Positions 1 to 16,442 of a stretch of 17,799 nucleotides of DNA are shown piece after piece. A program made the translations under genes and the position numbers. This DNA comes from a virus (Duplodnaviria; Heunggongvirae; Uroviricota; Caudoviricetes). The notes below the pieces were generated by a model. That model had not been told where the DNA came from. It searched no databases and saw only the letters and a list, made by a program, of their open reading frames with translations. The stretch spans positions 1 to 17,799 of the IMG/VR virus record IMGVR_UViG_2713896905_000007, one strand, 5' to 3'. Within the stretch, counting starts at the first letter, position 1, and the number at the start of each line of letters is the position of its first letter.

Positions 1-315
1 TTAGCATTTTTTTGACCGCGCGTTTCCGGACGTATTCTGTTCTCCTGTCCCTTTATATCGTCGGAATACCCGCCGCTCTTCAAATCCCATTCCCAACTCA
101 GAATGTAGTCTGTTGACCGCTTGTTTTATTTCTGTCAGGTTCACCGGTGAAACCGGAGTCCGGCGCGCCTTACGCAAACACTCTGCTCGTTTCTGTGCCG
201 CCACTTTTCTTTTCTGGTCATCACTTAGCTGTACCATCACTTTTGCCCATCGTTCAGCTGCTCTCCGGTACAGTCCTTTTTTCTCCAGACATTCTGCCAG
301 GTGATCATGTAGCAT
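1..315 (-). CDS. PerC-family (Pch-like) transcriptional regulator, 104 aa, complete
   Basis: ATG at 315 preceded by GGAGG with 7-nt spacing, TAA stop at 1-3. Basic small protein beginning MLHDHLAECLEKKGLYRRAAERW, resembling my recollection of PerC/Pch regulators carried by E. coli prophages. Lies distal to Rz, a typical moron position. Family assignment is from memory only. Confidence 0.5.
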   Translation of the reverse strand: MLHDHLAECLEKKGLYRRAAERWAKVMVQLSDDQKRKVAAQKRAECLRKARRTPVSPVNLTEIKQAVNRLHSELGMGFEERRVFRRYKGTGEQNTSGNARSKKC

Positions 316-778
316 AAGTGACCTCCGATTATCTACAGACTGCTATCCTGAATTTACCTTCCTTTAATGAAATAACAATAAAAAATAAATCACAGAGAAA
401 CAACAAAACAACACACAAAAAAAACTAAATAATAAACCCAAATAATCACCTTATTTTATTATTTTTTGAGAGAGCTATTACTGAACAAAAAACGCTGACT
501 ATATACTCAAAACCAAACAACTATTCTGCCAATCAGGTATCATGGCAACACAAGGAATTACCGTGTTTTTGCCTTCTCTGCCCATACAATACGGACATAT
601 ACTTCATACTCTATTGTAAATTTCCATCCATGCGCCCACTTCATTTATCTGTAAATAATATTCAAAATATTTATCACAGAAATCGTTTTTGGCCATGTTC
701 TGAGCACACTATAAAGTCCGGAACTGACTTTTTGTTAAATTACCTTAACGTTACCAGTAGCACCTTCATAACAAAACA

Positions 779-1243
779 TCACGGTATACACTGGGTACGG
801 ATATATTCCTGTGCTCCTTCCAGTTGCTTCTGCATTGTCATCAGCCGTTCTCTGAGGATGAAATAATCCCGTTCAGCGGTGTCTGCCAGTCGGGGGGAGG
901 CTGCATTATCCACGCCGGAGGCGGTGGTGGCTTCACGCACTGACTGACAGACTGCTTTGATGTGCAACCGACGACGACCAACGGCAACATCATTACGCAG
1001 AACATCATTTTCAGCTTTCGCATCAGCTAACTCCTTCGTGTATTTTGCATCGAGCGCAGCAACATCACGCTGACGCTGCTGCATGTCAGCGATGGTGGCG
1101 ATTGCCTGCTTCAGCTCACTGACTTTTTTATCACGCTGTTCTTTGTAGGCGATGGCGTTATCACGGTAATGATTGACCGCCCACGACAGGCAGACGATGA
1201 TGCAGATAACCAAAGAGGACAGAATCGCGGTTACTCTGCTCAT
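779..1243 (-). CDS. Rz: Rz i-spanin (lysis), 154 aa
   Basis: Near-identical over most of its length to lambda Rz as I recall it (MSRVTAI...[15 protein letters not shown]...[39 protein letters not shown]). Immediately follows the endolysin gene. Confidence 0.95.
841..1023 (-). CDS. Rz1: Rz1 o-spanin lipoprotein, embedded in Rz in the +1 frame, 60 aa
   Basis: Lipobox LVVVGC followed by proline-rich [22 protein letters not shown], matching lambda Rz1. Entirely nested inside Rz as in lambda. Confidence 0.9.
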
Positions 1244-1716
1244 ACCTCAATATCTCTGACCGTTCCGCCTGCTTCTTTGAATTTTGCAATCAGGCTGCCA
1301 ACTTTATGCTCTAACTGACCATAACCAGCGCCCGGTAGTGAAGCCCAGATATTGCTGCAACGGTCGATAGCCTGACGAATATCACCGCGATCAATCATTG
1401 GTAAAGCGCCACGCTCTTTAATCTGCTGCAGTGCAACAGCGTCCTGACTTTTCGGAGAGAAGTCTTTCAGGCCAAGCTGCTTGCGGTAGGCATCCCACCA
1501 ACGGGAAAGAAGCTGGTAACGTCCAGCTGCGGTTGATTTAAGTTGCGGGTTTAGCGTGACAAGTTTGCGAGGATGATCGGAGTAATCCGTGAATAGCTCA
1601 CCACCTACAATAACGTCGTAGCCGTGATTGCGGGTTGGCTGTCGCCCGTTATCCGTTCCTTCTGACCACGCCAACATATCGAGGAAAGCTTTACGCTGGG
1701 AATTTAGTACCTGCAT
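1240..1716 (-). CDS. R: Endolysin R (lambda-type lytic transglycosylase), 158 aa
   Basis: Strong similarity to recalled lambda R ([52 protein letters not shown]). ATG at 1716 preceded by GGAG. Overlaps the Rz start by 4 nt. Confidence 0.95.
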
Positions 1717-1719
1717 AAA

Positions 1720-2055
1720 TTACTCCTTAGAGCCACCAAACTTGTTACCGATTACTCGCATTGCAGCCCCACGAATAGCATCGACACCGATCAGCCCCAC
1801 ACCGCCACCAATGGCAACAGAAAGTGATTTAGGCCATCCGACATACTCAAGAGCGGATGCAAAGGTCAGCGTCAGAGCGCCACAGAGCAAAATCTCGAGC
1901 GTTTTTCGCTTCCAGCCACCACCACCGCCAAAATAGGCGATGCGCAAACCAGCCATAACGATCGACATAATCACTGCACCCAGCGGTGTGTCTCCACGCC
2001 ACCAGCTCTGAAACAACTCCAGCCAGTCCGGCCAGGTATTTGGGTTATGAGGCAT
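1720..2055 (-). CDS. Class I holin (three predicted TM segments), about 111 aa from ATG at 2055
   Basis: Sits directly upstream of the endolysin. Three hydrophobic segments (LGAVIMSIVMAGLRIAYF, TLEILLCGALTLTFASALEYV, SLSVAIGGGVGLIGVDAI) and a charged C-terminus. The ORF extends to 2151 but that would overlap the methylase 3' end; ATG at 2055 has GAGG upstream. Start is uncertain. Confidence 0.6.
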   Translation of the reverse strand: MPHNPNTWPDWLELFQSWWRGDTPLGAVIMSIVMAGLRIAYFGGGGGWKRKTLEILLCGALTLTFASALEYVGWPKSLSVAIGGGVGLIGVDAIRGAAMRVIGNKFGGSKE

Positions 2056-2131
2056 TTCGTCATCTCTCACCTCGCGATATTTGCGGGTGCTGTGTTGGAA
2101 ATAAAAAGACCACGCAACGTGGCCACCAGAA

Positions 2132-3184
2132 TTATTTCCCCACCAGTTCACTTACCTCTTTCACCGTCTGATTAAACCGCTCTGACTCAAGTTCAACACC
2201 TAACGCCCGACGCCCCAGCGCCATTGCTGCTTTTATTGTGGAACCGGATCCCATAAAAAAATCAGCAACCAGATCACCAGGTCGACTACTGGCATTGATT
2301 ATTTGCCGGAGCATATCCGCCGGTTTCTCGCACGGATGTTTACCCGGGTAGAACTGAACGGGTTTATGCGTCCAGACATCGGTATAAGGCACGGAGACTG
2401 ATACGGAGAAATAGCGCCGGAGAGATTTAAACTCATCCAGCAATTCAGAATATTTGCGATTCAGTGAATCATAAGATGCCACCAGCTGGTGGTGTGGTTG
2501 TTCCAGTTGTTGTTCCTGAAACTTCTCTGCCGCTATACGGGAAAAGAGTGCCTGTAACTTCCGATAGTCAGCCTCATTCGGCAACTGCCACTGACTGGCA
2601 CCAAACCAGTGGGAAACCATATTTTTCTTACCTGTGGCTTCGGCAATTTGTTTTGCCGTTATACCCAGTTCGGCACGAGCATCCCTGAAATACGATATCA
2701 GCGGTGCCATTATGTGCTGTTTGAGTTCCCTTTCTTTTGCCGCATAGCCGTCACTTTTGCCGCGATATGGCCCCTGGTAATGTTCAGCAAACAGAACGCG
2801 CTCTGTTGCCGGGAAATACGCCCGCAGGCTTTCCTTGTTGCACCTGTTCCAGCGTCCTGACGGCTTCGCCCAGATAATGTGATTCAGCACATTAAAGCGT
2901 TCACGCATCATAATTTCGGTGTCAGATGCCAGGCGATGACCACAGAACAGGTAAAGACTTCCGGCGGGCTTCAGTACCCGCCAGAACTGCGCCAGACACT
3001 GGTCCAGCCATTTCAGGTAATCATCGTCCCCCTTCCACTGGTTATCCCAGCTCTCGGGCTTCACTTTAAAGTATGGCGGGTCTGTGACTATCAGATCGAC
3101 AGAGTTTTCCGGTAAGGTCTGGATAAATTCCAGGCAATCAGCGTTGATTAACTCACAACTGGATATTTTTACAGTATTAGCCAT
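2132..3184 (-). CDS. DNA amino-methyltransferase (beta-class N6-adenine or N4-cytosine), 350 aa, no cognate restriction gene in window
   Basis: Catalytic DPPY motif near the N-terminus (LIVTDPPYF) and an AdoMet-binding FxGxG motif near the C-terminus (DFFMGSGSTIKAA). This motif order is the beta-class arrangement. No nuclease gene is adjacent. Confidence 0.85.
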   Translation of the reverse strand: MANTVKISSCELINADCLEFIQTLPENSVDLIVTDPPYFKVKPESWDNQWKGDDDYLKWLDQCLAQFWRVLKPAGSLYLFCGHRLASDTEIMMRERFNVLNHIIWAKPSGRWNRCNKESLRAYFPATERVLFAEHYQGPYRGKSDGYAAKERELKQHIMAPLISYFRDARAELGITAKQIAEATGKKNMVSHWFGASQWQLPNEADYRKLQALFSRIAAEKFQEQQLEQPHHQLVASYDSLNRKYSELLDEFKSLRRYFSVSVSVPYTDVWTHKPVQFYPGKHPCEKPADMLRQIINASSRPGDLVADFFMGSGSTIKAAMALGRRALGVELESERFNQTVKEVSELVGK

Positions 3185-3334
3185 AGATCAATAAGCGCTT
3201 CTCTGATAGGCTCATACCGCTTTTGCGCAAAGCAGATGGGCCTGAGGTTTGCTTGTGACCCCAACGCATGAGCAGATGGCTGGCAGGTGCCGCTAACACC
3301 CACCAGCCGCCCATTACCACAAATTAAAAAGCCT

Positions 3335-3514
3335 TCACTGCGGAAAGCGTCTGTAACAACCGAACTGATAATCTGCCAGACCCGCCATAACAAGCTGGGT
3401 CAGTATTAACTGGCAGCGTTCGCGTGAAAGGTAAGTATTCTGCGCAATCTCCCCGACGGTCGCCGGTTCGGTGACGCTTAATTCATTAAACACCACTCTG
3501 GCGGTTTCGGTCAT
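3335..3514 (-). CDS. Hypothetical small protein (59 aa) with winged-helix-like segment, below the ORF-track cutoff
   Basis: My own translation of the minus strand gives MTETARVVFNELSVTEPATVGEIAQNTYLSRERCQLILTQLVMAGLADYQFGCYRRFPQ*, with AGGA just upstream of the ATG. Lies between the tR'-like terminator and the methylase. A continuing out-of-frame ORF (3169-3393) suggests a possible frameshifted longer gene. Confidence 0.35.
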   Translation of the reverse strand: MTETARVVFNELSVTEPATVGEIAQNTYLSRERCQLILTQLVMAGLADYQFGCYRRFPQ

Positions 3515-3654
3515 ATCCTGCTGTTTTAGCAGTCTTTTTTCCTTTTCTGGTTAACGTGACATACCAATAACTCTTGTCGAAAAGGCCAGCAAGCTGAAAG
3601 ACCAGTATTCGCAACCACCAGCGCGTTTAACGTCCTGTGCTGTTTTTCGGACAC

Positions 3655-3677
3655 AAAAAAACCCGCCTGGTGGCGGG
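3655..3677 (-). terminator. Rho-independent terminator on the minus strand, candidate tR' of the late operon
   Basis: Minus-strand reading CCCGCC-ACCA-GGCGGG followed by TTTTTTT (plus coordinates 3662-3677 stem, 3655-3661 U-tract). Positioned about 85 nt downstream of the Q stop and upstream of the late genes. Confidence 0.7.
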
Positions 3678-3726
3678 CTGTAAAAATTCTTCTAACATCA
3701 GGCATAAAACGCCCATCGTTAGTGCG

Positions 3727-3754
3727 AATTTACCACGGATTCGTGAAAAATCAA
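3727..3754 (-). promoter_or_regulatory. Candidate late promoter (pR'-like) immediately after Q
   Basis: Minus strand TTGATT-16 nt-TAAATT, with a TG two bases upstream of the -10 element. Position matches the pR' of lambdoid phages between Q and tR'. Sequence-only prediction. Confidence 0.3.
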
Positions 3755-3759
3755 CAACA

Positions 3760-4581
3760 CTATCGCATTACCCTCTTTAACTGCCGCTCCGCCCATGCCT
3801 CCTCAATGTCAAACCGAACCACCAACGTATCGTAAAAACGCTTCACTGATTTTTTCCACGTATCAAGAGTGATAGCGCTCGTCACTTTGCATATGGCATT
3901 AAACGCCTCCGTTGACGGCAATCTTTCATAGCCACGACCACCACAACGCTGGCAGTCTCTGATAACAGGCATACCACGTTTTACCGACTCTTCACGATGA
4001 ATGGCGACACCACGCCCACGGCAATCCTTACAGGCGGTGGAGACCTCACCCTTTCCCCCGCATTCAGGACAGGCAACTTTTACCACTTCCCGGACTTTTT
4101 TCCATTCTTCCCAGTAAGACGGATACACACCCTTTGTACACTTTGCCCATACCGGCGGTTTACCATCCGGATACTGGACCTTGTTTGTAAAAACTACGCT
4201 TTCAATAAATTTTTTCCCACCGCAACAAGGGCACTGTTTTTTACTCGCTGCACTGCGGGCATAATCCTCAAAAGCGTACGAAGCCATAATGCGCATCACT
4301 GCCGGTTTTATTTCTGCCGGAAGTTTTCTTAACGCCGCCACGCCATCACACCGACTGAGAGCATATTCTGTCAGTAGTTCTGTTGCCCGCTCCCGGTCAT
4401 TCATACTGATGCCCATTTTCCCCAGGAACGCAGAAAATCCCATCTCAGCACGGTCTTGTGTCATACCCTGCGCAGCCATCACATCAGTGATACTCAGCGT
4501 ATCTTTTGACGTCGAGACGGATGCATCAGTCAGACCTGGCGATTTTGGGGAGTAGTATTTCGGTAAATCTTCCAGCTTCAT
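3760..4581 (-). CDS. Late-gene antiterminator Q (lambda Q family), 273 aa, with Cys-rich insertion
   Basis: N-terminal and C-terminal regions match recalled lambda Q (KYYSPKSP...TDVMAA.GM; DTLVV...). Central region carries four CxxCxGxG repeats. Start overlaps the rusA stop. Confidence 0.85.
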   Translation of the reverse strand: MKLEDLPKYYSPKSPGLTDASVSTSKDTLSITDVMAAQGMTQDRAEMGFSAFLGKMGISMNDRERATELLTEYALSRCDGVAALRKLPAEIKPAVMRIMASYAFEDYARSAASKKQCPCCGGKKFIESVVFTNKVQYPDGKPPVWAKCTKGVYPSYWEEWKKVREVVKVACPECGGKGEVSTACKDCRGRGVAIHREESVKRGMPVIRDCQRCGGRGYERLPSTEAFNAICKVTSAITLDTWKKSVKRFYDTLVVRFDIEEAWAERQLKRVMR

Positions 4582-4958
4582 TTATTGACCTGCCCGTCAT
4601 GCATTATTTCGTAAATCTTCACGCCCAGTCGCCCACCAGGAACGAGCTGACCGCGCACAATATTGATTTCATCAAACTGCTCGTCGTCTATAAGTAGTCC
4701 GGCATGCGTCAGCGCATCCAGTGGTGCCTTCAGGATATTGTCCAGGTCGCGGCGGCGCTTATCCGGTGGCTCTGCAATAATCTTTATCGCCAGCCTTCCG
4801 GACAGGTTTAATTTCAGCCGCTGCTGGCGAACAATTAGCGCCACATCACGGCGATAACGCTCACCGGCTTTTGATACAAAATATACGCCACCACGACGGC
4901 GCCAGTAGGTGTTCACCGACGGCGGGTAAGGCAAAACAAATTCTATGCGCTCAGTCAT
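4578..4958 (-). CDS. rusA: Holliday junction resolvase RusA, 126 aa
   Basis: Characteristic RusA motifs (PPSVNTYWRRRGG..., PDKRRRDLDNILKAPLDALTHAGLLIDDEQ) matching recalled E. coli RusA. Lies immediately upstream of Q, as in phage 82 and DLP12. Confidence 0.9.
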   Translation of the reverse strand: MTERIEFVLPYPPSVNTYWRRRGGVYFVSKAGERYRRDVALIVRQQRLKLNLSGRLAIKIIAEPPDKRRRDLDNILKAPLDALTHAGLLIDDEQFDEINIVRGQLVPGGRLGVKIYEIMHDGQVNK

Positions 4959-6014
4959 TTATGCTTTCCACTTCAGGACACCTGAATTTCTCGCGTGCAT
5001 TAAAAAACGAATCAGCAACAACAGCTGGCTGCCGTGTTTTTCTTCAAAATCTTTTACCCCGGCGTGCAGTTCGTTATGACATTTACGGCACAGCGGAATA
5101 ACAAACAAATCGTCAGCCTTTGTTCCCATCCCTCCAAGTCCATGACCAATGATGTGATGCGGATCATCTGCCTGATTGCCACACGTCATGCATTTCTGCG
5201 TTTTTACCCAACGCGTGTATACAGGCATCTCTTCCCGTTGTGGTTTCTGGCGCTGGAGATACTGAGCCGGTGACTCCGGATCAACGGCAATGCTTACCAC
5301 CGTCTTTTCCTGTGGCGGGTTTTGCTGGTGGGCGTGAGGCAGCGGCGCAAGATTTTTTGTGCGCTGCTTCAGTATGCTGGTGGCGGTCTGCTCTCCCGGT
5401 ACGATGTCGCTTTCACGGTACACTGAGCAGATTTTTTCCGCACGCAACCCCAGCGAACGACGTAATACTGACTCAGGTAATGCATCCGCCACCTGATTGC
5501 AGAGCGCCCACCAGGATAATTCAGCCAGCGATAATTCCCGCTCCTGCGTGCCATTCATTGCATGGCGTATGACGTCAATCATCCAGGCTGTCAGGTTTTG
5601 TTGAGCAAGTTGCCCGAGTGATTCGGAGGTCTGGTCACGCAGCTGATTGTCACAGTGCCAGCACAACACCATCGCGCCGGTACCGTAACGATGTATGACG
5701 GTTTCGCTGTGGTGATAGTCACCATGAGGCCACTGGCAGGATTTAACATGACGCAGGAGCCAGTCAGACAATGCGCCAGCGCCGCCAGCAGCACGAATAG
5801 CCCGCTCATCGCTGAAAAATGGCAGTAATGATTTATCTTCCACGAGCGGCTGGCGAACGGCAGGAACAGCTCCTGACGGCAGACTGCGCATGCTTTTCGG
5901 TTCCGGCTCCACCAGCACTCGAGGATTATGAAATACCTGCATGGATTCACGACCAGGCTTAAGGACCACCAGCCCGAGTTCCGGTACCAGAACAGGTCGA
6001 AGTAATACCCGCAC
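4959..6014 (-). CDS. DUF968-like (YdfU-like) phage protein with C-terminal Cys/His HNH-like motif, 351 aa
   Basis: Position between the hok/rem-like genes and rusA-Q matches ydfU of Qin. C-terminal CMTCGNQADDPHHIIGHGLGG...CRKCHNELH resembles a zinc-binding HNH-type fold. Start is GTG at 6014 preceded by GGAGG; an alternative ATG lies at 5942. Confidence 0.6.
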   Translation of the reverse strand: MRVLLRPVLVPELGLVVLKPGRESMQVFHNPRVLVEPEPKSMRSLPSGAVPAVRQPLVEDKSLLPFFSDERAIRAAGGAGALSDWLLRHVKSCQWPHGDYHHSETVIHRYGTGAMVLCWHCDNQLRDQTSESLGQLAQQNLTAWMIDVIRHAMNGTQERELSLAELSWWALCNQVADALPESVLRRSLGLRAEKICSVYRESDIVPGEQTATSILKQRTKNLAPLPHAHQQNPPQEKTVVSIAVDPESPAQYLQRQKPQREEMPVYTRWVKTQKCMTCGNQADDPHHIIGHGLGGMGTKADDLFVIPLCRKCHNELHAGVKDFEEKHGSQLLLLIRFLMHARNSGVLKWKA

Positions 6015-6015
6015 G

Positions 6016-6294
6016 TTACCTCCAAATCCGTTGCTGGAATGTGCGGGACGGACGCGGTGGCCGTTCGAAGTAAGGGAGCCTGACGTAGATTATCCAGTGA
6101 CGATAATCGAGGCTGAGGGCTTTCCTAAACTCATACCCACGTCTGCGGTAGTTCTGAATCAGCCATTCGGCCTGTTCTTCAGTGCATGGGTCGTGCTGGA
6201 ACCAGTCAGATTTGAATGCATGAGAACGCCGCCCGTGCCTGCTGGCAAAGGCGGCTGAATTATCAGAATTGTGTGATCTGGGATTTTGCGCCAT
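6016..6294 (-). CDS. Hypothetical nin-region protein, 92 aa
   Basis: ATG at 6294 with GGAG 7 nt upstream. Its stop directly abuts the downstream gene start, suggesting translational coupling. No recognised motifs. Confidence 0.55.
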   Translation of the reverse strand: MAQNPRSHNSDNSAAFASRHGRRSHAFKSDWFQHDPCTEEQAEWLIQNYRRRGYEFRKALSLDYRHWIIYVRLPYFERPPRPSRTFQQRIWR

Positions 6295-6360
6295 CGGCTT
6301 TCTCCGGTGGCACAGTGTTACTCAACAGGGGTTCAGCCCTGCGCTGAATTGTAGATGAAT

Positions 6361-6621
6361 TCACTCATCTTCAAAAGCAGAAAAACCAGCCTTAATCCCA
6401 GCTTCTTTCAGAGACGGCAACGATGTGACAAATTCATTTGCACGCAAAATAAAACCATCCGTCACAAGCCCATCCACCAAATGAATTAACGCAGCTCCAC
6501 TCTTCCTTTGTTGAGACTGTAAACATTTAATACGGCAGTGGCTGACAATAGCGCCATTCTCAACGCGCACAGTATAGAGGCCATCTTCACTAAAAATTTC
6601 ACGTAATTCTTCGATTTTCAT
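6361..6621 (-). CDS. Hypothetical small protein (86 aa) in the position of rem of Qin
   Basis: ATG at 6621 with GGAAGG upstream. Located immediately downstream of hok as rem is in Qin. Identity with Rem is not verified. Confidence 0.55.
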   Translation of the reverse strand: MKIEELREIFSEDGLYTVRVENGAIVSHCRIKCLQSQQRKSGAALIHLVDGLVTDGFILRANEFVTSLPSLKEAGIKAGFSAFEDE

Positions 6622-6703
6622 CAACAGAATCCTTCCAGATAAATAGCACTCCCCTGTTTGGGGTCCATCCCTCTTCTCCCTGCGCGCTACTTAAGTATTT
6701 TTG

Positions 6704-6733
6704 ATTCTATTCCGGCTCCGTCCAGAACTTCAA
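6704..6733 (-). promoter_or_regulatory. Candidate sigma70 promoter for the rem-like and nin genes
   Basis: Minus strand TTGAAG followed by TAGAAT at 17-18 nt spacing, located just downstream of the hok terminator. Sequence-only prediction. Confidence 0.3.
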
Positions 6734-6743
6734 ACGCGTTGAA

Positions 6744-6771
6744 AATAAAAACAAAAACCCGCCGAAGCGGG
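6744..6771 (-). terminator. Rho-independent terminator ending the hok mRNA
   Basis: Minus strand CCCGC-TTCG-GCGGG followed by TTTTTGTTTTTATTTT. Confidence 0.75.
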
Positions 6772-6841
6772 TTAAGTGCGGGTGCGTTGAGGATGCCTGA
6801 CACATCAGAGGTGGCGAGGGATTTCTCCCCCGCCTGGTCTC

Positions 6842-6997
6842 TTACTCCTCAGGTTCGTAAGCTGTGAAGACAGCGACCTCCGTCTGGCCGGTTCGGATTC
6901 GTACCTCGCAGAGGTCTTTCCTCGTTACCAGTGCCGTCACTATGACGGTTAAACAGATGACGATCAGGGCGATTAACATCGCCTTTTGCTGCTTCAT
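6842..6997 (-). CDS. hokD: Hok-family type I toxin (HokD/RelF-like), 51 aa
   Basis: MKQQKAMLIALIVICLTVIVTALVTRKDLCEVRIRTGQTEVAVFTAYEPEE matches recalled HokD/RelF. Single TM segment and conserved Cys. Confidence 0.9.
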   Translation of the reverse strand: MKQQKAMLIALIVICLTVIVTALVTRKDLCEVRIRTGQTEVAVFTAYEPEE

Positions 6998-7054
6998 AGC
7001 CTGCTTCTCCTTGACCTTTCGGTCCGTAAGAGGCAATCTATATGTGACGAGCAT
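6842..7054 (-). CDS. mok-like overlapping reading frame (70 aa) that includes hok
   Basis: ATG at 7054 with GAGG 8 nt upstream. The frame reads through into hok, as mok does in hok/sok loci. Confidence 0.5.
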   Translation of the reverse strand: MLVTYRLPLTDRKVKEKQAMKQQKAMLIALIVICLTVIVTALVTRKDLCEVRIRTGQTEVAVFTAYEPEE

Positions 7055-7140
7055 ATAGGGGCCTCACTTCGATTTATAGTCGGGTGGGGCTTTTATCTAT
7101 CTGCCGTTGGTGTTCATGCCTGAGGCAGATAGCCTCAAGC

Positions 7141-7168
7141 ACCCGCAGCAATTCTACTTAACTCTCCT
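7141..7168 (-). promoter_or_regulatory. Candidate hok mRNA promoter
   Basis: Minus strand TTGCGG-16 nt-TAGAAT. The predicted transcription start coincides with the 5' element (plus 7122-7135) that is complementary to the 3' element at plus 6778-6792. Confidence 0.4.
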
Positions 7169-7265
7169 TTTCCCGCAAATCGTTTTTATCCCCAGCGGCA
7201 AATCGAATACACCACCAGCGCCACCGCCATTGCAATTCCCATCGTTGCGAATGCTTCAGGCCAGG

Positions 7266-7985
7266 TCATTGACTCACCTCCAGCGGCGGTTCTGGTAGCG
7301 GCATCCAGTGAGTTGCTTGCCCAAGGTCATTACCCGGACTAACTGCTATACCTCCGCGTCGGAACGTGTCTCCGATATAGCGTGCGGAATATATTAATGG
7401 CCCAGCCTCGCTGTCGATATTCACCGAAATAAGCACGTTCTGGCTCTTTTCAGGCATTCGCTCACTGCAGCTTATCCAACTATCCGGAGTTCCCGGAGAG
7501 TTGCCCGACAGCTCGTTCAACTTGTAAGTCTGGCTTACAGGTTCGTCACCATTAAGCATGGCGTTGCTCCGCTCTATACCATCCAGCGCGATTCGCAGTG
7601 CCTGAATTGTGGTAGTGCTATCGTTTGGGGCTATTCCATATCGCTCGAATACAGCGATATGACCGCGCATAATCTCAGGTGTAAGTTCTTTGTAAGCATA
7701 AGCAAGAGACGCTGATGCATTATCCGGCACAACCGACGCAGGCGCGGCAGCATAAACAGGAATAACGTCCGCTTGCTCTTTATTGCTTTCATCCGTTAAA
7801 GCCCAGAATAATTTCCCGGCCGGATGTTTGAAAATATAAGCAATTGGTTCTGCTTCCAGAGATGCCAGAGCAATTTTGAATAACTCACCCTCTACTCGTG
7901 CCACCCCTGAATTGGGGTGGCATTTCGCAATCGCTATTTTTAATTTAGCTTCTTCGATTAATTGCTCTTTTGTTAATTCAGTCAT
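7266..7985 (-). CDS. Phage protein with C-terminal DUF551-like domain, 239 aa
   Basis: The C-terminal segment (WISCSERMPEKSQNVLISV...THWMPLPEPP) resembles the DUF551 domain common in nin regions of enterobacterial prophages. ATG at 7985. Confidence 0.6.
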   Translation of the reverse strand: MTELTKEQLIEEAKLKIAIAKCHPNSGVARVEGELFKIALASLEAEPIAYIFKHPAGKLFWALTDESNKEQADVIPVYAAAPASVVPDNASASLAYAYKELTPEIMRGHIAVFERYGIAPNDSTTTIQALRIALDGIERSNAMLNGDEPVSQTYKLNELSGNSPGTPDSWISCSERMPEKSQNVLISVNIDSEAGPLIYSARYIGDTFRRGGIAVSPGNDLGQATHWMPLPEPPLEVSQ

Positions 7986-8143
7986 TTTTCATTACCGCCC
8001 TTTCGGGCGGCCTCCTGATGTTTTGAGGGTGCAGGAATCCCTCCTGTTAAGGATTAAATTTTATTTACAGTGCTGAGATTAATTATTCAGATTTGGATTA
8101 TGTTTTCTCTTTCACTTCACGCAGTCCTGATTGTTAATTTGGC

Positions 8144-8560
8144 TCACAGTATCACCTCCTGCAAACTTCCCTTCCAGAAAGCCAGCACCCGTTGCATAGC
8201 TTCGCTCTGGCGGCACTCGAGACAAATTATGTTCTGTCGTCTGTTGTAACGACGTATTTCGCCATCTGGCAATGAATAAATCAGGTCAGGGTCGCTCTTC
8301 TTTTTCACTGCCGCTCTCGACATTTTTTTGCAGGCTTTTATCCAGTCCTTACGAGCCTGCTCCGAAGGAAATATTCCATGTCCTGAACCATATACTGCGC
8401 CACTAACTACCAGCTCTTTCGCCAGAACTTCTATCAGGTGCCTCGTTGCTCCGGTTTCATCCTCCAGTTGCTTACGTGTTTTCCGCCCATCCCGCTGTAC
8501 CAGCTCCACAATGCGCGCCTTCAGTTGCTTCCTGTATTCAGGTGTAAAAACGTTTCCCAT
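8144..8560 (-). CDS. Hypothetical protein, 138 aa from ATG at 8560
   Basis: The ORF extends to 8617, but ATG at 8560 has GAGG 5 nt upstream and sits just past the stop of the upstream gene. No recognised motif. Confidence 0.5.
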   Translation of the reverse strand: MGNVFTPEYRKQLKARIVELVQRDGRKTRKQLEDETGATRHLIEVLAKELVVSGAVYGSGHGIFPSEQARKDWIKACKKMSRAAVKKKSDPDLIYSLPDGEIRRYNRRQNIICLECRQSEAMQRVLAFWKGSLQEVIL

Positions 8561-8567
8561 AAACGCC

Positions 8568-9329
8568 TCACTTTTCCGACACAACGCGACTGGAGGAATC
8601 GACAATCTGTCGGACAATATCCCTGTGTTTATTCAGCTCCCGCAGTGCGGCACAGACTCGCTCCCACTTCTGGACACGGTTTTTTGCCCGGCGCAGTTCG
8701 CGGTTTGCCAGATGCAGCGATGGTAAAGTCAGGTCATCGGCTCGCGTTTTGGTGAACGATGGCAACGACTGCACAATGTCCGCCACAGTTTCTGTTTTAA
8801 TTTCTTCCTGTATTGCAGCTTCCGGCGCTGGTAACGCAACACCCGCTGGCTGAGGAAAGGCTTTACCACCATTTCCCGTTACCGATGCGGCTTTCGGTTC
8901 TGCTGGTAAATCATCGCCCGGCAGGCAGTAACGGAATTTACCGTTCTGATTTACACGAATCAGGCGACCTTTGCTGATTGCCTGAGCCAGCGTTGAAGCT
9001 ACTTTGCGTGATGTGGTACCGAACAACGTAGCCAGTTCATCCGCCGTTTGTGGTCCGCGTTGTTCAATCGTCGCGGTTAAATCGCACTCTGAGATTTTCG
9101 CTACTGTTGCTGTGGTGGTTTCTTCCGGCAGCTCTGCCTGCGCTGGCTGTTCCTGCTGAACGTTGTTATCAGCCACACGCCAGGTGTACGCGCTCTTATC
9201 AACAAAACCAGCCTTTTTCAGTTCCCATAGTTCGTTAAGCACTTCTTCACGACTGATATCAAGTCGCGCCGCAAGTTCTATGGATGTGGCTTTTCCCATT
9301 GCTTTCAGTGCGTCAAAAACAGTCTCCAT
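8568..9329 (-). CDS. Hypothetical protein with two predicted winged-helix DNA-binding segments, 253 aa from ATG at 9329
   Basis: ATG at 9329 preceded by AGGAG with 9-nt spacing; an alternative ATG at 9380 lacks a ribosome-binding site. Two HTH-like segments ([28 protein letters not shown] and [29 protein letters not shown]) and a basic helical C-terminus. Confidence 0.55.
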
Positions 9330-9351
9330 TAAATTTTTCTCCTGGTAAAAA

Positions 9352-10098
9352 TTACTTCGTGATTCCTGGCTGGACGACATTCTGGCGCCAGCTTTCCCAG
9401 TTAAAAGTCACCCAGCGCCCGCCGTTCATGGTCATGCGATCCATAATCCTCTCGCCGAGCAACGTTTTCATGGCCTCATAGTTCAGGTTTGTCAGCATCC
9501 CCATACTGCGCATCGATGCTGTCCGGCGATCAACAATCTGATGCAGCACCACCTGCTCGTTTTTCGTCTCACGCTGAATGCCAATTTCATCAAGAACCAG
9601 CAGATCCACTTCGCACAGTTCCCGCAAAAATTTTTCGCCTGACTGCCCGTCGTCATAGCTGGCGTGCAGGGCACTCATAACATCAGCCACAGTAACCACT
9701 ATCACTGTCTGGCCGTCTTTCAGCAGGCGATTTCCGATAGCCGCCGCCAGATGGTTTTTTCCGGTACCAGGTTTTCCGCTGAACGCGAAATTTGTGCATC
9801 CGGTCATCAGTTCATCAGCGATGGATTTCGCCTGACTTAACGCGTATCGCTGGCCGTCGTTCTGTACATGGTAATTCGCAAACGAGCATTTACGGTGCAA
9901 CGGCTGGATGCCTGAGCGATTCAGAATTTTTTCCACCCGCAACTGGCGATTCAGGCGGTTGATCTCCTCGCTACGCTTCTGGCCTTCAGCAAGTTGCCAC
10001 TCGCGCCACTCCGCTACCGTTCTGAATGGGGCGGTTACATGTGGCGGGGTCAGTCTGCGGATACGTTCCAGAACGCCGCCTGTCGCAATATTTTTCAT
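9352..10098 (-). CDS. DnaC/IstB-like helicase loader (replication protein P analogue), 248 aa
   Basis: Walker A motif [15 protein letters not shown] and Walker B motif LLVLDEIG. Starts 6 nt after the O-like gene. Confidence 0.85.
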
Positions 10099-10104
10099 GG
10101 TTCG

Positions 10105-11094
10105 TTACCCCCTGAACCCCGGCGGAATTTCGGTGTCCGGTTCAGAAATATGATTCACACAACGCTGTACAGGTGAACGCCCCAGGCGGATGACCAGTTC
10201 GTCCCATTTTTCGCGGAGCTTTGACGGGCTCATGATGTTTTTTACCCAGAATGGATCCCGCTGTACCCGCCCAAACATTTCGCAAATTTGTCTGTGAGTT
10301 CTGCCATCCAGCATCCGCATTGTGCGCACGTCATTGGCCCACGCGGTCCAGTTGGGTTCTTTCGGTCTCGTGATCTCGCCATCATCGCTGGCCGCCTGCT
10401 CGTAAAGACTCACGATTCGTCCCCAGATCCACTGTGCGCACGCCAAATCTTCCTGACTTCCCCACTGGCGTTTTTTCGCACTGAACACAACCGCATCAGG
10501 GTGTCGGGTTAAAAAATCCTGTTCAGCCGTCTGCGGGTCCGGTTGCGAAGCTTCCGGACGAGAAGTGTTTTTATTCTCTGTAGTAATCTCTGTTGTATTC
10601 TCTGTTGTATTCTCTGTTGTATTCTCTGTAAGATCATCAGGCCATTTTGACCCGATGACATTGGGTCGTTTTGAACCAATGGAGCGTGCCATTTTGACCT
10701 CTTCCATCGTGTCATTTTGACCTGATGGAGCGGCGCATTTTGACCTGATGGATTCGCTCACTTTGCCACCATCTAAAAGCTCACTCTCGTAATTAATCGT
10801 GTAAAAATTAGTCATATCACGCTTTGATTTGTTGAGCTTTTCGCAACGCAAAAGCCCCAGCGTTTTCAGACTTGCAAATGCACGTTTTAACGTTGATTCA
10901 GACCAGAACGGAAACTGTTCCAGCCATTGTTCCGTTGTGTTATAAATCCAGCGAACCCCGTCACATTCCACACCGGAATTGGTATCTCTCAACCAGTAAT
11001 GCAGCTGCTGTAACACAATGGCTTCGTTCAGACCTATTTCCATCGCCAGCTGAGTGTTAATAACCAGTGGGCGTTCAGCAAAAAGAAGACTCAT
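10105..11094 (-). CDS. Replication initiator (lambda O-like) with origin iterons embedded in its coding sequence
   Basis: Precedes the DnaC-like gene. Tandem repeats inside the ORF encode ENTTENTTENTTEITTEN, the arrangement seen at the lambda origin inside O. Start is uncertain: TTG at 11148 or ATG at 11136, 11094 or 11043; I chose 11094. Confidence 0.65.
   Translation of the reverse strand: MSLLFAERPLVINTQLAMEIGLNEAIVLQQLHYWLRDTNSGVECDGVRWIYNTTEQWLEQFPFWSESTLKRAFASLKTLGLLRCEKLNKSKRDMTNFYTINYESELLDGGKVSESIRSKCAAPSGQNDTMEEVKMARSIGSKRPNVIGSKWPDDLTENTTENTTENTTEITTENKNTSRPEASQPDPQTAEQDFLTRHPDAVVFSAKKRQWGSQEDLACAQWIWGRIVSLYEQAASDDGEITRPKEPNWTAWANDVRTMRMLDGRTHRQICEMFGRVQRDPFWVKNIMSPSKLREKWDELVIRLGRSPVQRCVNHISEPDTEIPPGFRG
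10573..10632. repeat. Five tandem 12-bp direct repeats (ATTCTCTGTTGT family)
   Basis: Read directly: attctctgtagt, aatctctgttgt, attctctgttgt, attctctgttgt, attctctgtaag. Confidence 0.9.
10643..10815. repeat. Second iteron family (CATTTTGACC, about 23-bp unit) plus adjacent AT-rich segment; putative replication origin
   Basis: CATTTTGACC at 10643, 10689 (as CCATTTTGACC), 10713 and 10736, with degenerate copies near 10666 and 10758. Several copies are followed by a GATG motif. AT-rich stretch at about 10785-10815. Confidence 0.65.
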
Positions 11095-11596
11095 AATTCC
11101 ATCCGGCTTTTTGTTGATATTGCTGACGATACGCATGCTTGAAAGCAATAGCTTTTTCTATAAGCTCGTCAGTCTCACGCTCCACAACAGCGGGATCTGC
11201 CAAAAGCAGACCGGACTCCACCACATCGCCATATTCTTTGTTTAACCCGGCGATCATGTATGTAATGCTTTTTCCGTCAGTAATTTCACGATACAACCTG
11301 AAATCACTTATCCGGATAGCCTCCATAATTGCCGGAATCAGCGCCGTGAATTTTTCCCGCTTATCCCTGGTATCAATAGCTTTCCAGCGTTCGAATATCT
11401 TCACCCGGTTGACGCCCAGCGCCCGTTGATCAACCGCGCCATCATCAAACGTGACGCGTTGAACATCGATGTTCGGGCGTTCTTTCAGAGCCCAGAATGC
11501 TTCCGTGATTAATATCGTCGCCTGCTCCTGTGTCATTCCTGGTCGGCATACCCAGGCATCCAGAGCCTCACAAACCTGTTCAGGGGTGATTTTCAT
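11075..11596 (-). CDS. Early protein in the cII position (possible CII-like or YdaT-like regulator), 173 aa
   Basis: ATG at 11596 overlapping the dicC-like stop. Lies between the cro-like and O-like genes. Functional call is by position only. Confidence 0.5.
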   Translation of the reverse strand: MKITPEQVCEALDAWVCRPGMTQEQATILITEAFWALKERPNIDVQRVTFDDGAVDQRALGVNRVKIFERWKAIDTRDKREKFTALIPAIMEAIRISDFRLYREITDGKSITYMIAGLNKEYGDVVESGLLLADPAVVERETDELIEKAIAFKHAYRQQYQQKAGWNYESSFC

Positions 11597-11807
11597 TGTT
11601 CAACCGCCCCGCCCGCTTTGCCTTACGATATTCGTCATAAACTTTGGGGTCGTACTGAAGTTCCCCGCCGGATGCCTCTTGCAGGCGCATCGCGCGACCT
11701 TCAGGAACAAGTTCCCCCCATGCAGCAACACTTGCCAGTTTCACTCCTGCGGCATTGGCAAGTTTTGTTTTGCTGCCAAAAAAAGTAATTGCGTCAACTT
11801 TAAGCAT
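11580..11807 (-). CDS. dicC: Cro-like HTH regulator (DicC-like), 75 aa
   Basis: Resembles recalled DicC (LK.DA..FGSKTKLA.AAG..LAS...W...VPEGRAMRLQEASGGELQYDPKVYDEYRK.KRAGRLNNENH). ATG at 11807 preceded by GAGGGGG. Divergent from the repressor gene. Confidence 0.8.
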   Translation of the reverse strand: MLKVDAITFFGSKTKLANAAGVKLASVAAWGELVPEGRAMRLQEASGGELQYDPKVYDEYRKAKRAGRLNNENHP

Positions 11808-11820
11808 CAAAACCCCCTCT

Positions 11821-11838
11821 TGTTAGATATTCCTAACA
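11821..11838. promoter_or_regulatory. Operator palindrome TGTTAG-N6-CTAACA between dicC-like and dicA-like genes
   Basis: tgttagatattcctaaca read directly. Overlaps the divergent promoter region (minus-strand TTGACT at about 11850-11855). Confidence 0.6.
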
Positions 11839-11887
11839 GTAATGTGCACGGGATACCTAAGTCAAGAAAAATTAGAATTACCTAACT

Positions 11888-12295
11888 ATGGATACAAGAA
11901 CCCTAGGCCAGCGAGTTCTGGCACGACGAAAAGAATTACGCCTAACACAACGAGAAGCTGCACGCCTCGCTGGGGTAGCTCACGTCACAATTTCACAATG
12001 GGAAAGAGACGAAACCCAACCGGTCGGGAAGCGGTTATTTGCTTTAGCTGATGCGCTGAAGTGCTCGCCTACATGGCTAATGTTTGGTGACGAAGACAAG
12101 GCACCAGTGCCAGCACAAGAACTTCATGTGGAAACCGAGTTAACTCCCAGCCACAAAGAATTGATCGAATTATTCGATGCTCTTCCCTCCTCCGAGCAGG
12201 AAGCCTTACTGTCTGAAATGCGCGCAAGAGTAGAGAATTTCAATAAACTCTTCGAAGAAATGCTTAAAGCACGTAAAAACAAATCAATAAAATAA
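11888..12295 (+). CDS. dicA: Prophage repressor, DicA-like (HTH XRE family), 135 aa
   Basis: Same length as DicA and strong similarity to recalled DicA (HTH ...TQREAARLAGVAHVTISQWERDETQPVGKRLFALADALKCSPTWLMFGDEDK..., C-terminal ...EMRARVENFNKLFEEMLKAR). Divergent from the cro-like gene. Confidence 0.85.
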   Translation: MDTRTLGQRVLARRKELRLTQREAARLAGVAHVTISQWERDETQPVGKRLFALADALKCSPTWLMFGDEDKAPVPAQELHVETELTPSHKELIELFDALPSSEQEALLSEMRARVENFNKLFEEMLKARKNKSIK

Positions 12296-12331
12296 CTCTC
12301 CTTTCAGATACTTAGATTCCCTCACTCTTTT

Positions 12332-12385
12332 TGTTAGATCAATCTAACAAAAAACACTTGCCACATTTGTTAGGTTATTCTAAAT
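12332..12385. promoter_or_regulatory. Operator pair and pL-like promoter downstream of the repressor gene
   Basis: Palindrome ttgttagat-ca-atctaacaa at 12331-12350 and a half-matching site tgttaggttattctaa at 12368-12383. Plus-strand TTGCCA (12358-12363)-17 nt-TAAATT (12381-12386) overlaps the second site. Confidence 0.5.
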
Positions 12386-12463
12386 TAATCTCCATCAAGA
12401 CACCGCACGGTGTTCTCAGCAAACAGTTCCGCTACCCCGGCGTTAAGGGGAAATGAGGTCAGC

Positions 12464-12619
12464 ATGGATACTATCGATCTTGGCAACAACGAATCTCTGG
12501 TGTACGGCGTGTTTCCCAACCAGGACGGCACATTCACCGCGATGACGTATACCAAAAGCAAAACGTTTAAAACCGAAAATGGTGCCCGTCGCTGGCTGGA
12601 AAGAAACTCAGGTGAGTGA
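12464..12619 (+). CDS. ydfA: YdfA-like small protein, 51 aa
   Basis: ATG at 12464 with GAGG 6 nt upstream. Length and position after dicA match ydfA of Qin. Identity is by position and length only. Confidence 0.6.
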   Translation: MDTIDLGNNESLVYGVFPNQDGTFTAMTYTKSKTFKTENGARRWLERNSGE

Positions 12620-12620
12620 T

Positions 12621-12749
12621 ATGGATTTCGACACAATCATGAAAAAGGCTTACGAAGAATACTTCGAAGGCCTTGCCGAAGGCGAAGAAACTCTCAGCTT
12701 CAGCGAATTTAAACAGGCGCTTTCCAGTTCGGCAAAATCTAACGGCTGA
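12621..12749 (+). CDS. ydfB: YdfB-like small protein, 42 aa (below ORF-track cutoff)
   Basis: My own translation: MDFDTIMKKAYEEYFEGLAEGEETLSFSEFKQALSSSAKSNG*. ATG lies 1 nt after the upstream stop, with GGTGAG upstream. Length and position match ydfB. Confidence 0.55.
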   Translation: MDFDTIMKKAYEEYFEGLAEGEETLSFSEFKQALSSSAKSNG

Positions 12750-12778
12750 TAAGCGAAACAACACCGCGAGGAATCAGT

Positions 12779-12997
12779 ATGCAGAAACGAGAACCCGTCA
12801 TCATCGCGCCAGACTATACCGATGATGAACTTTATGAGTGGATGCACCAGAAAATTAAGGCAGCGCAGAACCTGAAATGGGCCAATGAAGCCAGGGCTAA
12901 GCAGGCTGAAAATCTGTCCGCTCTGGAGCAGGATATCACCAGGCTGGAAAAAGCAGCGGCATTAAGCATTGCCAGAATGATTACATACCCGCGTTAA
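12779..12997 (+). CDS. ydfC: YdfC-like small protein, 72 aa
   Basis: ATG at 12779 with GAGGA upstream. Length and position match ydfC. Coiled-coil-like sequence. Confidence 0.6.
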   Translation: MQKREPVIIAPDYTDDELYEWMHQKIKAAQNLKWANEARAKQAENLSALEQDITRLEKAAALSIARMITYPR

Positions 12998-13338
12998 TAG
13001 CTAACCAACGAAGCTAAGGTTGGTAATTAAGGAGTTCTCCACGGGTGAGGTGGAGTGCGTGCGCCGGACACGGGTGAGCATCCGGCACTGACAGTTTACT
13101 GAAAGGATATTTCCCTGAAAAGTCAGGGCATAACGCGAAAGCGCACGGCGAGGTTTCTAGTTCACAGATAGCCTGTCGTTAAATTTTCGTCGACCGTGCG
13201 CTTCCGGTTGTGGCAATCCGCGAAATGGCGCGGCGGTAAGTATGGCGGGGTTATTCCTTCCCCCGTTGAGGACACCGGGTTGTCAGGTTGACCATACGCT
13301 TAAGTGACAACCACGCTGCAACGCCCTCTGTTATCAAT

Positions 13339-13396
13339 TTTCTGGTGACGTTTGGCGGTATCAGTTTTACTACGTGACTGCTCTGCCGCCATTTTT
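13339..13396 (+). ncRNA. dicF: DicF small regulatory RNA with terminator-like 3' hairpin and U-tract
   Basis: tttctggtgacgtttggcggtatcagttttactacgtgactgctctgccgcc followed by attttt is near-identical to my recollection of E. coli DicF (about 53 nt). Lies downstream of the ydfABC-like genes as in Qin. Confidence 0.8.
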
Positions 13397-13570
13397 AAAG
13401 TGAATTTTGTGATGCGGTGAATGCGGCTGAGCGCACGCGGAACAGTTAAAACTAAAAACAGTGTTATGGGTGGATTCTCTGTATCCGGCGTTAATTGTTA
13501 ACTGGTTAACGTCACCTGGAGGCACCGGGCACCGCATCAACAAAGTTCATTTGTAAAAATGGAGATAATT

Positions 13571-13792
13571 ATGATTGCTCATCACTTCGGAACTGATGAG
13601 ATTCCTCGTCAGTGCGTGACTCCCGGTGATTATGTTATTCATAAAGGAAGAACATATATTGCTTCGGTAAACAACATTAAAAAACAACGGCTCTATATTC
13701 GTGATTTTTCCACACAACACTGTATTAAGGAAACCATGATTAAAGTCTTCCTTGGTCGTGATGGTTTACCTGTAAAAGCAGAGTCATGGTGA
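13571..13792 (+). CDS. Hypothetical 73-aa protein in the dicB slot downstream of DicF
   Basis: ATG at 13571 with GGAG at 6-nt spacing; an upstream in-frame ATG at 13559 lacks a ribosome-binding site. Not recognisably DicB by my recollection. Confidence 0.55.
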
Positions 13793-13915
13793 GCAGTAAT
13801 AAAATAACTGCCACAATACGACATTCAGCTTAATGAATACATCAGATTTGATTCTTATATGTCAGCAATGGCAGGGATTTGTTCACCCTTAAATCTGTAA
13901 TGAGGTTAAAACAAA

Positions 13916-16381: not shown

Positions 16382-16442
16382 TGTTCAACCGTCGCCAGTT
16401 GTCGTTGATATTCTGCAACTGGCGCGTTCCGGAGTGATAGCC

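Follow-up and report, generated by a model that had tools for sequence, protein, structure and literature searches.

Which of the sequences between the late antiterminator gene Q and the lysis genes of a lambdoid prophage are genes, and what controls the DNA methylase encoded among them? The question is raised by a 17,799-nucleotide (nt) stretch of DNA (positions 1 to 17,799 of the IMG/VR record IMGVR_UViG_2713896905_000007; Duplodnaviria, Heunggongvirae, Uroviricota, Caudoviricetes), hereafter the window, which derives from a lambdoid prophage resembling SfV, phiP27 and mEp460 and in which all features relevant here lie on the minus strand. An earlier description made from the letters alone (the sequence-only reading) had noted that a 59-amino acid (aa) open reading frame (ORF) and an overlapping 74-aa frame precede the methylase gene, and had proposed that the two are a single gene of roughly 115 aa, broken by a frameshift or joined by a programmed one. 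Comparison with homologous loci gives a different picture. The interval consists of three separate parts of a widespread lambdoid ‘moron’ inserted between Q and its downstream terminator tR′, on one side, and the lysis genes, on the other: a small winged-helix gene (3514..3335), a gap of 150 nt with no annotated gene (3334..3185), and the methylase gene (3184..2132). The most conserved element of the locus, overlooked in the sequence-only reading, is a structured RNA leader of the methylase that lies within the gap. We hold this anatomy of the locus with high confidence and, judging from sequence comparison, lean towards the view that the gap is a cis-acting leader controlling methylase expression.

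A conserved structured RNA precedes the methylase gene

The leader spans positions 3322..3185, as delimited by sequence identity and covariation; the covariance-model match (3322..3176) includes the methylase ATG. Its mean pairwise identity is 0.83, compared with 0.73 for both flanking genes and 0.48-0.51 for their synonymous or third codon positions, a level of conservation close to that of non-synonymous sites. A search with a hidden Markov model (HMM) recovered exactly one copy of the leader in 157 of 158 sequences, and the methylase gene follows directly in 155 of these 157 loci. In 153 of the 154 loci for which the distance could be measured, the HMM match ends 17-19 nt past the methylase ATG, that is, conservation extends into the first codons of the enzyme. 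The association with the methylase is independent of the small ORF: leader and methylase are retained without it in four loci (L118, L120, L130 and L153), and where the methylase has been deleted (L018 and L125) the leader survives as a decaying remnant. No second copy was found elsewhere in the loci searched.

A first scan of viral sequences and a search with the methylase protein yielded only close relatives, and only two approaches, a variant DNA pattern and a query with the ancestral SUPREM protein, a published sequence, led to divergent leaders. Most of the phages with more distant methylases retrieved by the latter carry a recognisable, diverged leader scoring 60-100 bits. One phage group (L170, L171, L173-L176, L178, L179, L186, L193 and L204), which has a related small ORF and methylase, carries a short leader of ~95 nt (~100 nt upstream of the methylase match) that keeps the first hairpin, a/P2/b (AUGGCUGGUG/CACCAGCCAU), and is devoid of P3, P4 and the c and d segments described below.

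Five helices (P1, P2, P3, P4 and d:R) were modelled, with a covariance model built from 57 distinct sequences. In the main family (60 sequences), 96.5% of the cells hold standard pairs and eight pairs show changes on both sides, values reached by none of 500 shuffles, and pairing drops to 25-42% when the partners are slid against each other; these sequences are kin by descent and the model was derived from the same sequences. In the extended set of 65 sequences, 92.9% of the cells pair, compared with 31-42% for slid partners. Compensatory changes affect 22 of the 38 pairs (shuffled mean 12.9) and 154 cells (shuffled mean 37.8), neither count being reached in 500 shuffles, and the covariation score is 0.235 (shuffled mean 0.100). 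An all-against-all listing of column covariation was too noisy and was not used.

The individual helices differ in how they have been maintained. At the 5′ edge of the leader stands hairpin P0 (3348..3331), found in a terminator scan, which carries the stop codon of the small ORF in its loop and is followed by a U-run. In the window it has a 6-pair stem (3 GC) followed by UUUUUAAUUU; between lineages, the U-run ranges from strong to absent. The stem varies by lineage and always pairs (CCUCC/GGGGG, CUGCC/GGCGG, CCUUC/GAAGG, CUGUC/GGCAG), and a hairpin occupies the same place in loci lacking the small ORF. We regard P0 as a weak terminator-like element. Next come segment a (AUGGGC, 3314-3309) and hairpin P2, together 3314..3278, in which GGCUGGUGGGUG (3308-3297) pairs with CACCUGCCAGCC (3289-3278). 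Compensatory changes are seen in 9 of the 12 pairs of P2, both arms have been rebuilt in divergent lineages (GGCAGAAG/CUUCUGCC, GGUAGAGG/CCUCUACC, GACUGUAA/UUACAGUC), and all 30 variants fold as a hairpin. Helix P3 (3276..3248) joins UCUGCU (3276-3271) to AGCAAA (3253-3248) and overlaps segment b (GCUCAU, 3273-3268); its third pair is C-G, U-A, A-U or U-G, and in L169 it reaches nine contiguous pairs. The following stretch (3242..3209) contains segment c (GGCCCAU, 3242-3236), hairpin P4 (GCUUU, 3233-3229, with AAAGC, 3223-3219) and segment d (AUGAGCC, 3215-3209). One pair of P4 changes from U-A to G-C in divergent variants, and the outer pairs of c:d alternate between G-C and A-U. Directly 5′ of the ATG (3196..3186) lie segment R (GCUUAUU, 3196-3190) and UGAUC (3190-3186); R can pair either with d, in a hairpin with compensatory changes in all 7 of its pairs, or with GGUCAcAAGC (3260-3250), in helix P5.

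The structure belongs to the mRNA strand. The sense strand of the window folds at -67.6 kcal/mol (z = -2.4) and the antisense strand at -56.1 kcal/mol. The G/U-rich 5′ arm of P2 hardly varies within the main family, whereas the 3′ arm drifts among C/U and A/G alternatives, a drift that keeps G-U or Watson-Crick pairs only on the sense strand. An antisense RNA was rejected as an alternative: its fold is less stable by 11.5 kcal/mol, and each G-U pair would turn into a C-A mismatch. Two coding alternatives were likewise discarded. A seven-codon leader peptide with two Trp codons (MGGWWVL*), starting at the AUG of segment a, lacks a preceding Shine-Dalgarno sequence, and the sequence concerned is explained by P1/P2. 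An upstream ORF ending at an in-frame UGA 3 nt before the methylase AUG, which would suit termination-reinitiation, occupies a frame without a conserved start codon.

None of the 4227 families of Rfam 15 matched the leader, be it at E <= 1 in a scan of the window between 1900 and 4000 or at E <= 0.5 in seven diverse loci; these families include the S-adenosylmethionine (SAM) and S-adenosylhomocysteine (SAH) riboswitches and phage small RNAs (sRNAs). No element resembling tRNA or transfer-messenger RNA was found, and neither the leader sequence nor a described RNA at this place was found in the searchable literature. The leader is thus apparently an undescribed RNA element, widely distributed and unannotated in RefSeq. 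It combines compensated pairing, location on the mRNA strand and a fixed position before a start codon, and is best called a new family among structured mRNA leaders. Collectively, these observations make it very probable that the RNA structure is real and has been under selection.

One further property of the leader's 3′ end is the tetranucleotide GATC, a Dam site, at 3186-3189, 2 nt upstream of the methylase ATG (-6 to -3) and within helix P5. Neither the main family nor the diverged leaders of full length show any variation in it; the short-leader group has TCGAT instead.

Two alternative folds of the leader

Segments a (AUGGGC), b (GCUCAU), c (GGCCCAC) and d (GUGAGCC) are mutually complementary in two ways, and AAGCG pairs either with UUCGCU, in P3, or with CGCUU beside the start codon, in P5. 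In state I, a pairs with b around P2, after which P5 (GGUCAcAAGCG with CGCUUacUGAUC) encloses c:d and P4; the fold is a succession of local hairpins, closed by a helix whose end is one base short of the AUG. In state II, a pairs with c, enclosing P2 and P3, followed by P4 and then by the d:R hairpin. The mean energies over 60 sequences are -42.7 kcal/mol for state I and -41.8 kcal/mol for state II, and the minimum-energy fold of the window is state I. Pairing in the helices specific to state I amounts to 97.4% in the main family, where five pairs show double changes, and to 93.0% in the extended set. Compensation is clear in P5b, where A-U has become G-C in 13 sequences and G-C has become A-U in 8, and also in the outer c:d pair. 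Furthermore, three-way covariation links columns of c, d and R (C/G/C to U/A/U), a pattern that pairing of d with each of its two partners would produce. According to these models, the leader can adopt two mutually exclusive folds of about equal stability, and the pairings specific to each are conserved.

In this respect, the leader is similar to known two-state leaders, such as attenuators, riboswitch platforms and RNA thermometers, in having at least four segments and two exclusive, conserved pairings before a start codon. It differs from them in that the start codon is not sequestered in either predicted fold and that it matches none of the Rfam families.

The methylase is related to non-specific adenine methyltransferases

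The gene downstream of the leader (3184..2132) encodes a protein of 350 aa which matches PF01555 (N6_N4_Mtase) over residues 29-341 with 146.6 bits (cut-off 26.7). DPPY occupies residues 35-38 (within IVTDPPYF, 32-39) and FMGSG residues 310-314 (within DFFMGSGST, 308-316), which gives the motif order of the beta class of N6-adenine DNA methyltransferases: N-terminal DPPY (motif IV), target recognition domain (TRD), C-terminal FxGxG (motif I). Over its full length, the protein is identical to M.EcoGII at 289 of 349 residues (~83%); the comparison sequence was machine-read with a few errors from Table S1 of PMC11551740, and the true identity may be slightly higher. By sequence, the methylase falls within the M.EcoGI/M.EcoGII family of non-specific adenine methyltransferases, and the activity of this copy is a prediction. 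It shares with these enzymes of Escherichia coli O104:H4 prophages the beta-class DPPY-TRD-FxGxG order, the length of 349-350 aa and the prophage location, and differs from them in carrying S45, T89 and R114. At these positions 141 of 153 relatives have G, I and G, two of the columns being nearly invariant, and all three unusual residues are shared by only one other locus (L028). The activity of the window copy can therefore not be assumed, and it may be a weakened or decaying copy. The gene has no Shine-Dalgarno sequence before its ATG, as read from the sequence, and its first codons are A-rich.

According to the original reports, M.EcoGII modifies adenine in DNA irrespective of its context and is active on RNA as well (PMC5778455, PMC7544214); the former source further states that the enzyme is active alone in vitro, that its constitutive expression harms cells and that the gene is silent in the lysogen. 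Term-searched passages of the M.EcoGII papers contain no mention of an upstream leader or small ORF, and the word ‘upstream’ is absent from PMC5778455. The sequence-only reading was right in placing a beta-class DPPY methylase without a restriction gene between a tR′-like terminator and a holin gene, as borne out by the PF01555 match, the terminator at 3679..3660 and the PF05106 match of the holin, and its description of the enzyme as an orphan methylase of a late operon holds, the operon being Q-dependent. Its suggestion that such an enzyme protects progeny DNA from restriction agrees with the role that the M.EcoGII authors propose, namely, to defeat host restriction (PMC5778455).

The methylase ORF contains, at 2479-2492, a palindrome of two back-to-back Chi sequences, CCACCAGCTGGTGG, and both sense and antisense Chi occur at the equivalent place of the methylase in SfV, mEp460, Escherichia albertii and E. 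coli EC12 (L001, L003, L005, L239).

Possible role of the leader

Phage Mu provides a known example of a late transcript in which a toxic DNA-modifying enzyme is encoded behind an mRNA leader whose structure limits its translation: Com, a zinc-finger RNA-binding protein, activates translation of mom, which com overlaps. The present locus resembles com-mom in its small ORF, its structured leader and its toxic modification enzyme within a late transcript. It differs in that the small protein is a winged helix, encoded 150 nt away, which the leader-methylase unit can dispense with in many phages. The proteins of the two systems are unrelated.

In the model that we favour, the methylase would be transcribed only by Q-modified polymerase, during late lytic growth, and the ~150-nt non-coding leader, which begins with the P0 hairpin and its U-run, continues with the conserved multi-helix domain and ends at the start codon lacking a Shine-Dalgarno sequence, would act in cis after transcription to set the translation level of a toxic methylase, the small winged-helix gene being an accessory part of the module. 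That M.EcoGII is toxic and silent in the lysogen would explain why its synthesis should be closely regulated. The leader might act through access to the start region, processing, mRNA stability or termination at P0. The final codons of the small ORF contain the 5′ arm of P0, so that a ribosome translating them would open the hairpin. Whether the control bears specifically on methylase translation is, from the sequence data, an evenly balanced matter.

Several observations weigh against this model or its two-state version. The AUG itself is unpaired in both folds, so that the start site is not obviously occluded. The extended set backs the state-I helices less strongly: there, the number of pairs with double changes was reached by 46 of 500 shuffles. 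The structural alignment was fitted to one model and the counts consequently lean towards that model, and the family is closely related, with a mean column identity of 87% in the main group. Finally, the short leader of one phage group indicates that the full two-state design is not universal.

The best surviving alternative accepts the structured RNA and assigns it another task: a site at which RNase III or RNase E processes the late transcript or an element governing the stability of that transcript, a transcription attenuator working with P0, or a separate trans-acting sRNA. Indeed, a:b and P2 of state I would form an interrupted duplex of ~18 bp that resembles phage RNase III sites, which would suit the processing route; P0, with its U-run, resembles a terminator, the 5′ arm of which would be melted by ribosomes reaching the end of the small ORF; and the unpaired AUG fits these possibilities as well. 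However, there is no promoter-like site before the leader and no terminator behind it, the leader always ends at the methylase ATG with conservation entering the first codons, and it is present once per locus with no copy elsewhere in the loci searched. We consider this alternative not very likely, it being understood that processing and translational control are not mutually exclusive. Rather less likely is the reading in which the leader represents a new class of genuine two-state RNA switch that responds to a specific trigger. Candidate triggers would be sensing of SAM or SAH, binding of the methylase or of the winged-helix protein, or N6-methylation of the leader by the RNA-active M.EcoGII-type enzyme encoded behind it, in which case the enzyme would limit its own synthesis.

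The small winged-helix gene

The ORF at 3514..3335, read from an internal ATG, encodes 59 aa and is a genuine, conserved winged-helix protein gene. In 19 diverse loci, its identity is 0.51 at codon position 3 and 0.84 at positions 1 and 2. Homologues form 260 clusters in the protein database, typically of 63-65 aa, and belong to phrog_331, a PHROG family without assigned function. The helix-turn-helix (HTH)-like segment recognised in the sequence-only reading maps to helices H2-H3 of the predicted fold. In the best of the AlphaFold2 models (24 homologues; pLDDT, a predicted local distance difference test, of 89.9, the other four models reaching only 50-56), helices at residues 3-11, 20-27 and 31-43 are followed by a beta-hairpin at 47-56, fitting the winged-helix order H1-S1-H2-H3-S2-W-S3. 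Foldseek matched this model to the winged-helix domains of IclR and MarR regulators and, further, to the N-terminal domains of O-methyltransferases and the RNA-binding winged-helix domain of SelB, with TM-scores of 0.75-0.87 on the query. NCBI names the homologues TrmB/MarR-type winged-helix transcription regulators. Matches to Pfam winged-helix families remained below the cut-offs (TrmB 18.0 vs 25.6 bits, MarR_2 13.9 vs 27, HTH_24 13.1 vs 21.9), and a sequence search of solved structures gave nothing significant.

Homologues start 18 nt (six codons) upstream of the internal ATG, at the ATG of MLKQQD..., behind a good AAGGA. The window carries CTG at 3532-3530 in place of this conserved ATG, a change unique among 116 relatives. 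Judging from its sequence, the small gene may here be poorly translated, from the internal ATG at 3514. In another locus, L093 (IMG/VR contig 2778261541_000004, ~926-1369), a deletion fuses the Q gene to the last codons of the small ORF and leaves the hairpin, the leader and the methylase intact.

The sequence-only reading had suggested a controller-like partner of the methylase, and the broader possibility, that the winged-helix protein is a regulator or partner of the enzyme, be it a controller-like factor, an RNA-binding activator of its translation or a specificity subunit, is in our judgement unlikely. The two genes do occur together in 151 of 157 main-family loci, the predicted recognition helix (RCQLILTQLVMAGL) is the most conserved part of the small protein, and the fold resembles both DNA-binding and RNA-binding winged helices, those of IclR and MarR and that of SelB, respectively. 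However, leader and methylase are present with no detectable small ORF in the four main loci named above and in 31 of the 80 loci that make up the set with more divergent methylases; M.EcoGII does not need a partner in vitro; the Pfam matches are sub-threshold; and in the window the usual start codon of the small ORF is lost.

Two known systems were compared in this context. C proteins of restriction-modification systems are likewise small proteins of DNA-binding type encoded upstream of a modification gene, but they have an Xre-type HTH, act at C-box operators and time the expression of the restriction gene, whereas the present protein is a winged helix, no restriction gene stands beside the methylase, and no inverted or direct repeats of operator type were found. 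A closer precedent is PNB-2 of the Shiga toxin (Stx) phage PA8, which binds M.EcoPA8orf6770P and redirects it to 16S rRNA (PMC10810198). Here, too, a small winged-HTH gene lies just upstream of, and is co-transcribed with, a phage adenine methyltransferase gene (PMC10810198), and the case does show that such small methylase partners exist. The PA8 enzyme, however, belongs to the MT-A70 family (DPPW) and is encoded in another genome region, and PNB-2, with 143 aa and in phrog_1680, shows no sequence similarity to the 59-aa protein. The latter was accordingly rejected as a PNB-2 homologue (E = 0.13, different PHROG).

Chi sites and a possible role at the DNA level

The window contains the Chi sequence GCTGGTGG 12 times, compared with 0.63 expected from shuffles (largest value 3). 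Sites lie at 1999, 2479, 3300, 3615, 5909, 5966, 7212, 15804 and 17629 on the minus strand and at 2485, 5324 and 5376 on the plus strand; 10 of the 12 fall within 1999-7219, and 9 of the 12 share the strand of late transcription. Across related loci totalling 881 kb, Chi occurs once per 1.16 kb in the sense and once per 4.6 kb in the antisense orientation. The excess may reflect protection from RecBCD entering at the nearby right end of the genome.

One of these sites (3307-3300) is contained in the invariant 5′ arm of P2, which raises the possibility that the gap works as DNA, as a Chi site for recombination or RecBCD protection, as a module boundary for mosaicism or as an operator of the winged-helix protein. 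The abundance of Chi in the window, its roughly fourfold preference for the sense strand and the far lower variability of the 5′ than of the 3′ arm of P2 in the enterobacterial group would all suit such a role. However, divergent variants lose Chi and keep the pairing through changes on both arms, the variation of the 3′ arm is G-U-compatible and preserves pairing only on the sense strand, several helices free of Chi covary, and no repeated or palindromic operator-like sites were found. We consider a DNA-level role quite improbable; Chi function may impose an extra constraint on one of the arms without accounting for the leader.

The open frame across the gap

The ORFs listed in the sequence-only reading all exist, including, in another frame, the 74-aa ORF with a TTG start at 3393..3169. 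Its stop codon does not, as had been stated, overlap the methylase ATG (3184-3182): it lies at 3171-3169, which is 13 nt into the methylase gene. Pfam gives no match to the 74-aa product, and the frame is broken in most homologues. In three-frame translations of the gap, most sequences have stops in every frame; a stop-free frame exists in only 8 of 70 distinct gaps, in differing frames, and the frame differs from lineage to lineage through 1-nt insertions or deletions. Data with one genome per species supplied 24 loci (Escherichia, Klebsiella, Citrobacter, Salmonella, Kluyvera, Buttiauxella, Enterobacter, Mixta, Scandinavium, Erwinia and others). In all of them the gap is 147-154 nt long and the small ORF stands apart, with 52-61 aa when counted from the internal ATG, which is conserved, or up to 67 aa when the upstream ATG of the annotations is taken; nor is a fused protein of ~115 aa the norm among the 260 clusters. 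SfV, phiP27, mEp460 and RefSeq each annotate two genes and a gap of 150 nt, the first of the two being, in RefSeq, a hypothetical protein of 65 aa. The closed and shifting frames, together with the lack of a fused norm among homologues, indicate that the 74-aa ORF is a chance open frame of this lineage, and in a programmed ribosomal frameshift both overlapping frames would be conserved as coding, whereas here the second is closed in 62 of the 70 gaps.

Thus, a single gene of ~115 aa, frameshifted or programmed and coupled to the methylase, can be set aside as already refuted by sequence comparison, since, although the second frame is open from 3393 to 3169 in the window, overlapping both neighbours, and also in the close relatives phiP27, L004 and L028, it is closed in most of the gaps compared, the gap tolerates 1-nt indels, its substitutions track base pairs rather than codons, and the small-protein homologues end at the same stop position. 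Of the findings that the sequence-only reading had named beforehand as speaking against it, frames that are never fused were indeed observed, whereas a lack of conservation of the 59-aa ORF was not. As written, that description covers mostly ordinary features, namely, known genes and a spurious ORF.

Organisation and distribution of the module

On the minus strand, the order is Q, tR′, small ORF, 150-nt gap, methylase, terminator, holin, endolysin and spanins. Q (4581..3760), identified from the ORF list, encodes an antiterminator of 273 aa (PF03589, Antiterm, 165.8 bits), in which two stretches match the profile of the DnaJ CXXCXGXG zinc finger with 30.2 bits, narrowly below the cut-off of 32.7. 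At its 3′ side lies the tR′-like intrinsic terminator (3679..3660; an 8-bp stem with 6 GC, then a T-run), and a terminator is annotated at the same place in SfV. A weak Rfam match to Trp_leader at 3653-3762, covering the Q stop and tR′ region (23.4 bits vs a gathering threshold of 41; E = 0.079), is probably a chance match to a terminator-containing leader. In the interval between methylase and holin, a second intrinsic terminator (2124..2108; 7-bp stem and T-run) is again annotated at the same place in SfV. The gene downstream (2055..1720) encodes a lambda-S-type holin (PF05106, 94.5 bits), and the annotation of E. coli EC12 has a holin gene of 336 nt at the corresponding position. No sigma-70-like promoter was predicted between 1900 and 4000. 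The module of small ORF, leader and methylase is thus flanked by two intrinsic terminators (2108-2124 and 3660-3679) and has no predicted promoter of its own, which suggests that it depends on Q-modified polymerase, in the manner of a moron-like promoterless insertion.

The same arrangement is annotated in SfV (orf47/orf48), phiP27 (L23/L24), mEp460, cdtI and many Stx2 phages, where the module sits between Q and the lysis genes or the stx genes. DNA similar to this region is present in 2982 of 5426 complete E. coli genomes.

Significance

Enzymes of the M.EcoGII type are widely used tools and are toxic when expressed, and the leader at the start of the methylase gene offers a concrete handle for studying how such a methylase is controlled. 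For annotators, the locus carries a caution, in that the open frame across the leader is no gene. The module is present in many Stx-converting phages, between Q and stx. If the leader were indeed a two-state switch, such a switch would be present in more than half of the sequenced E. coli genomes.

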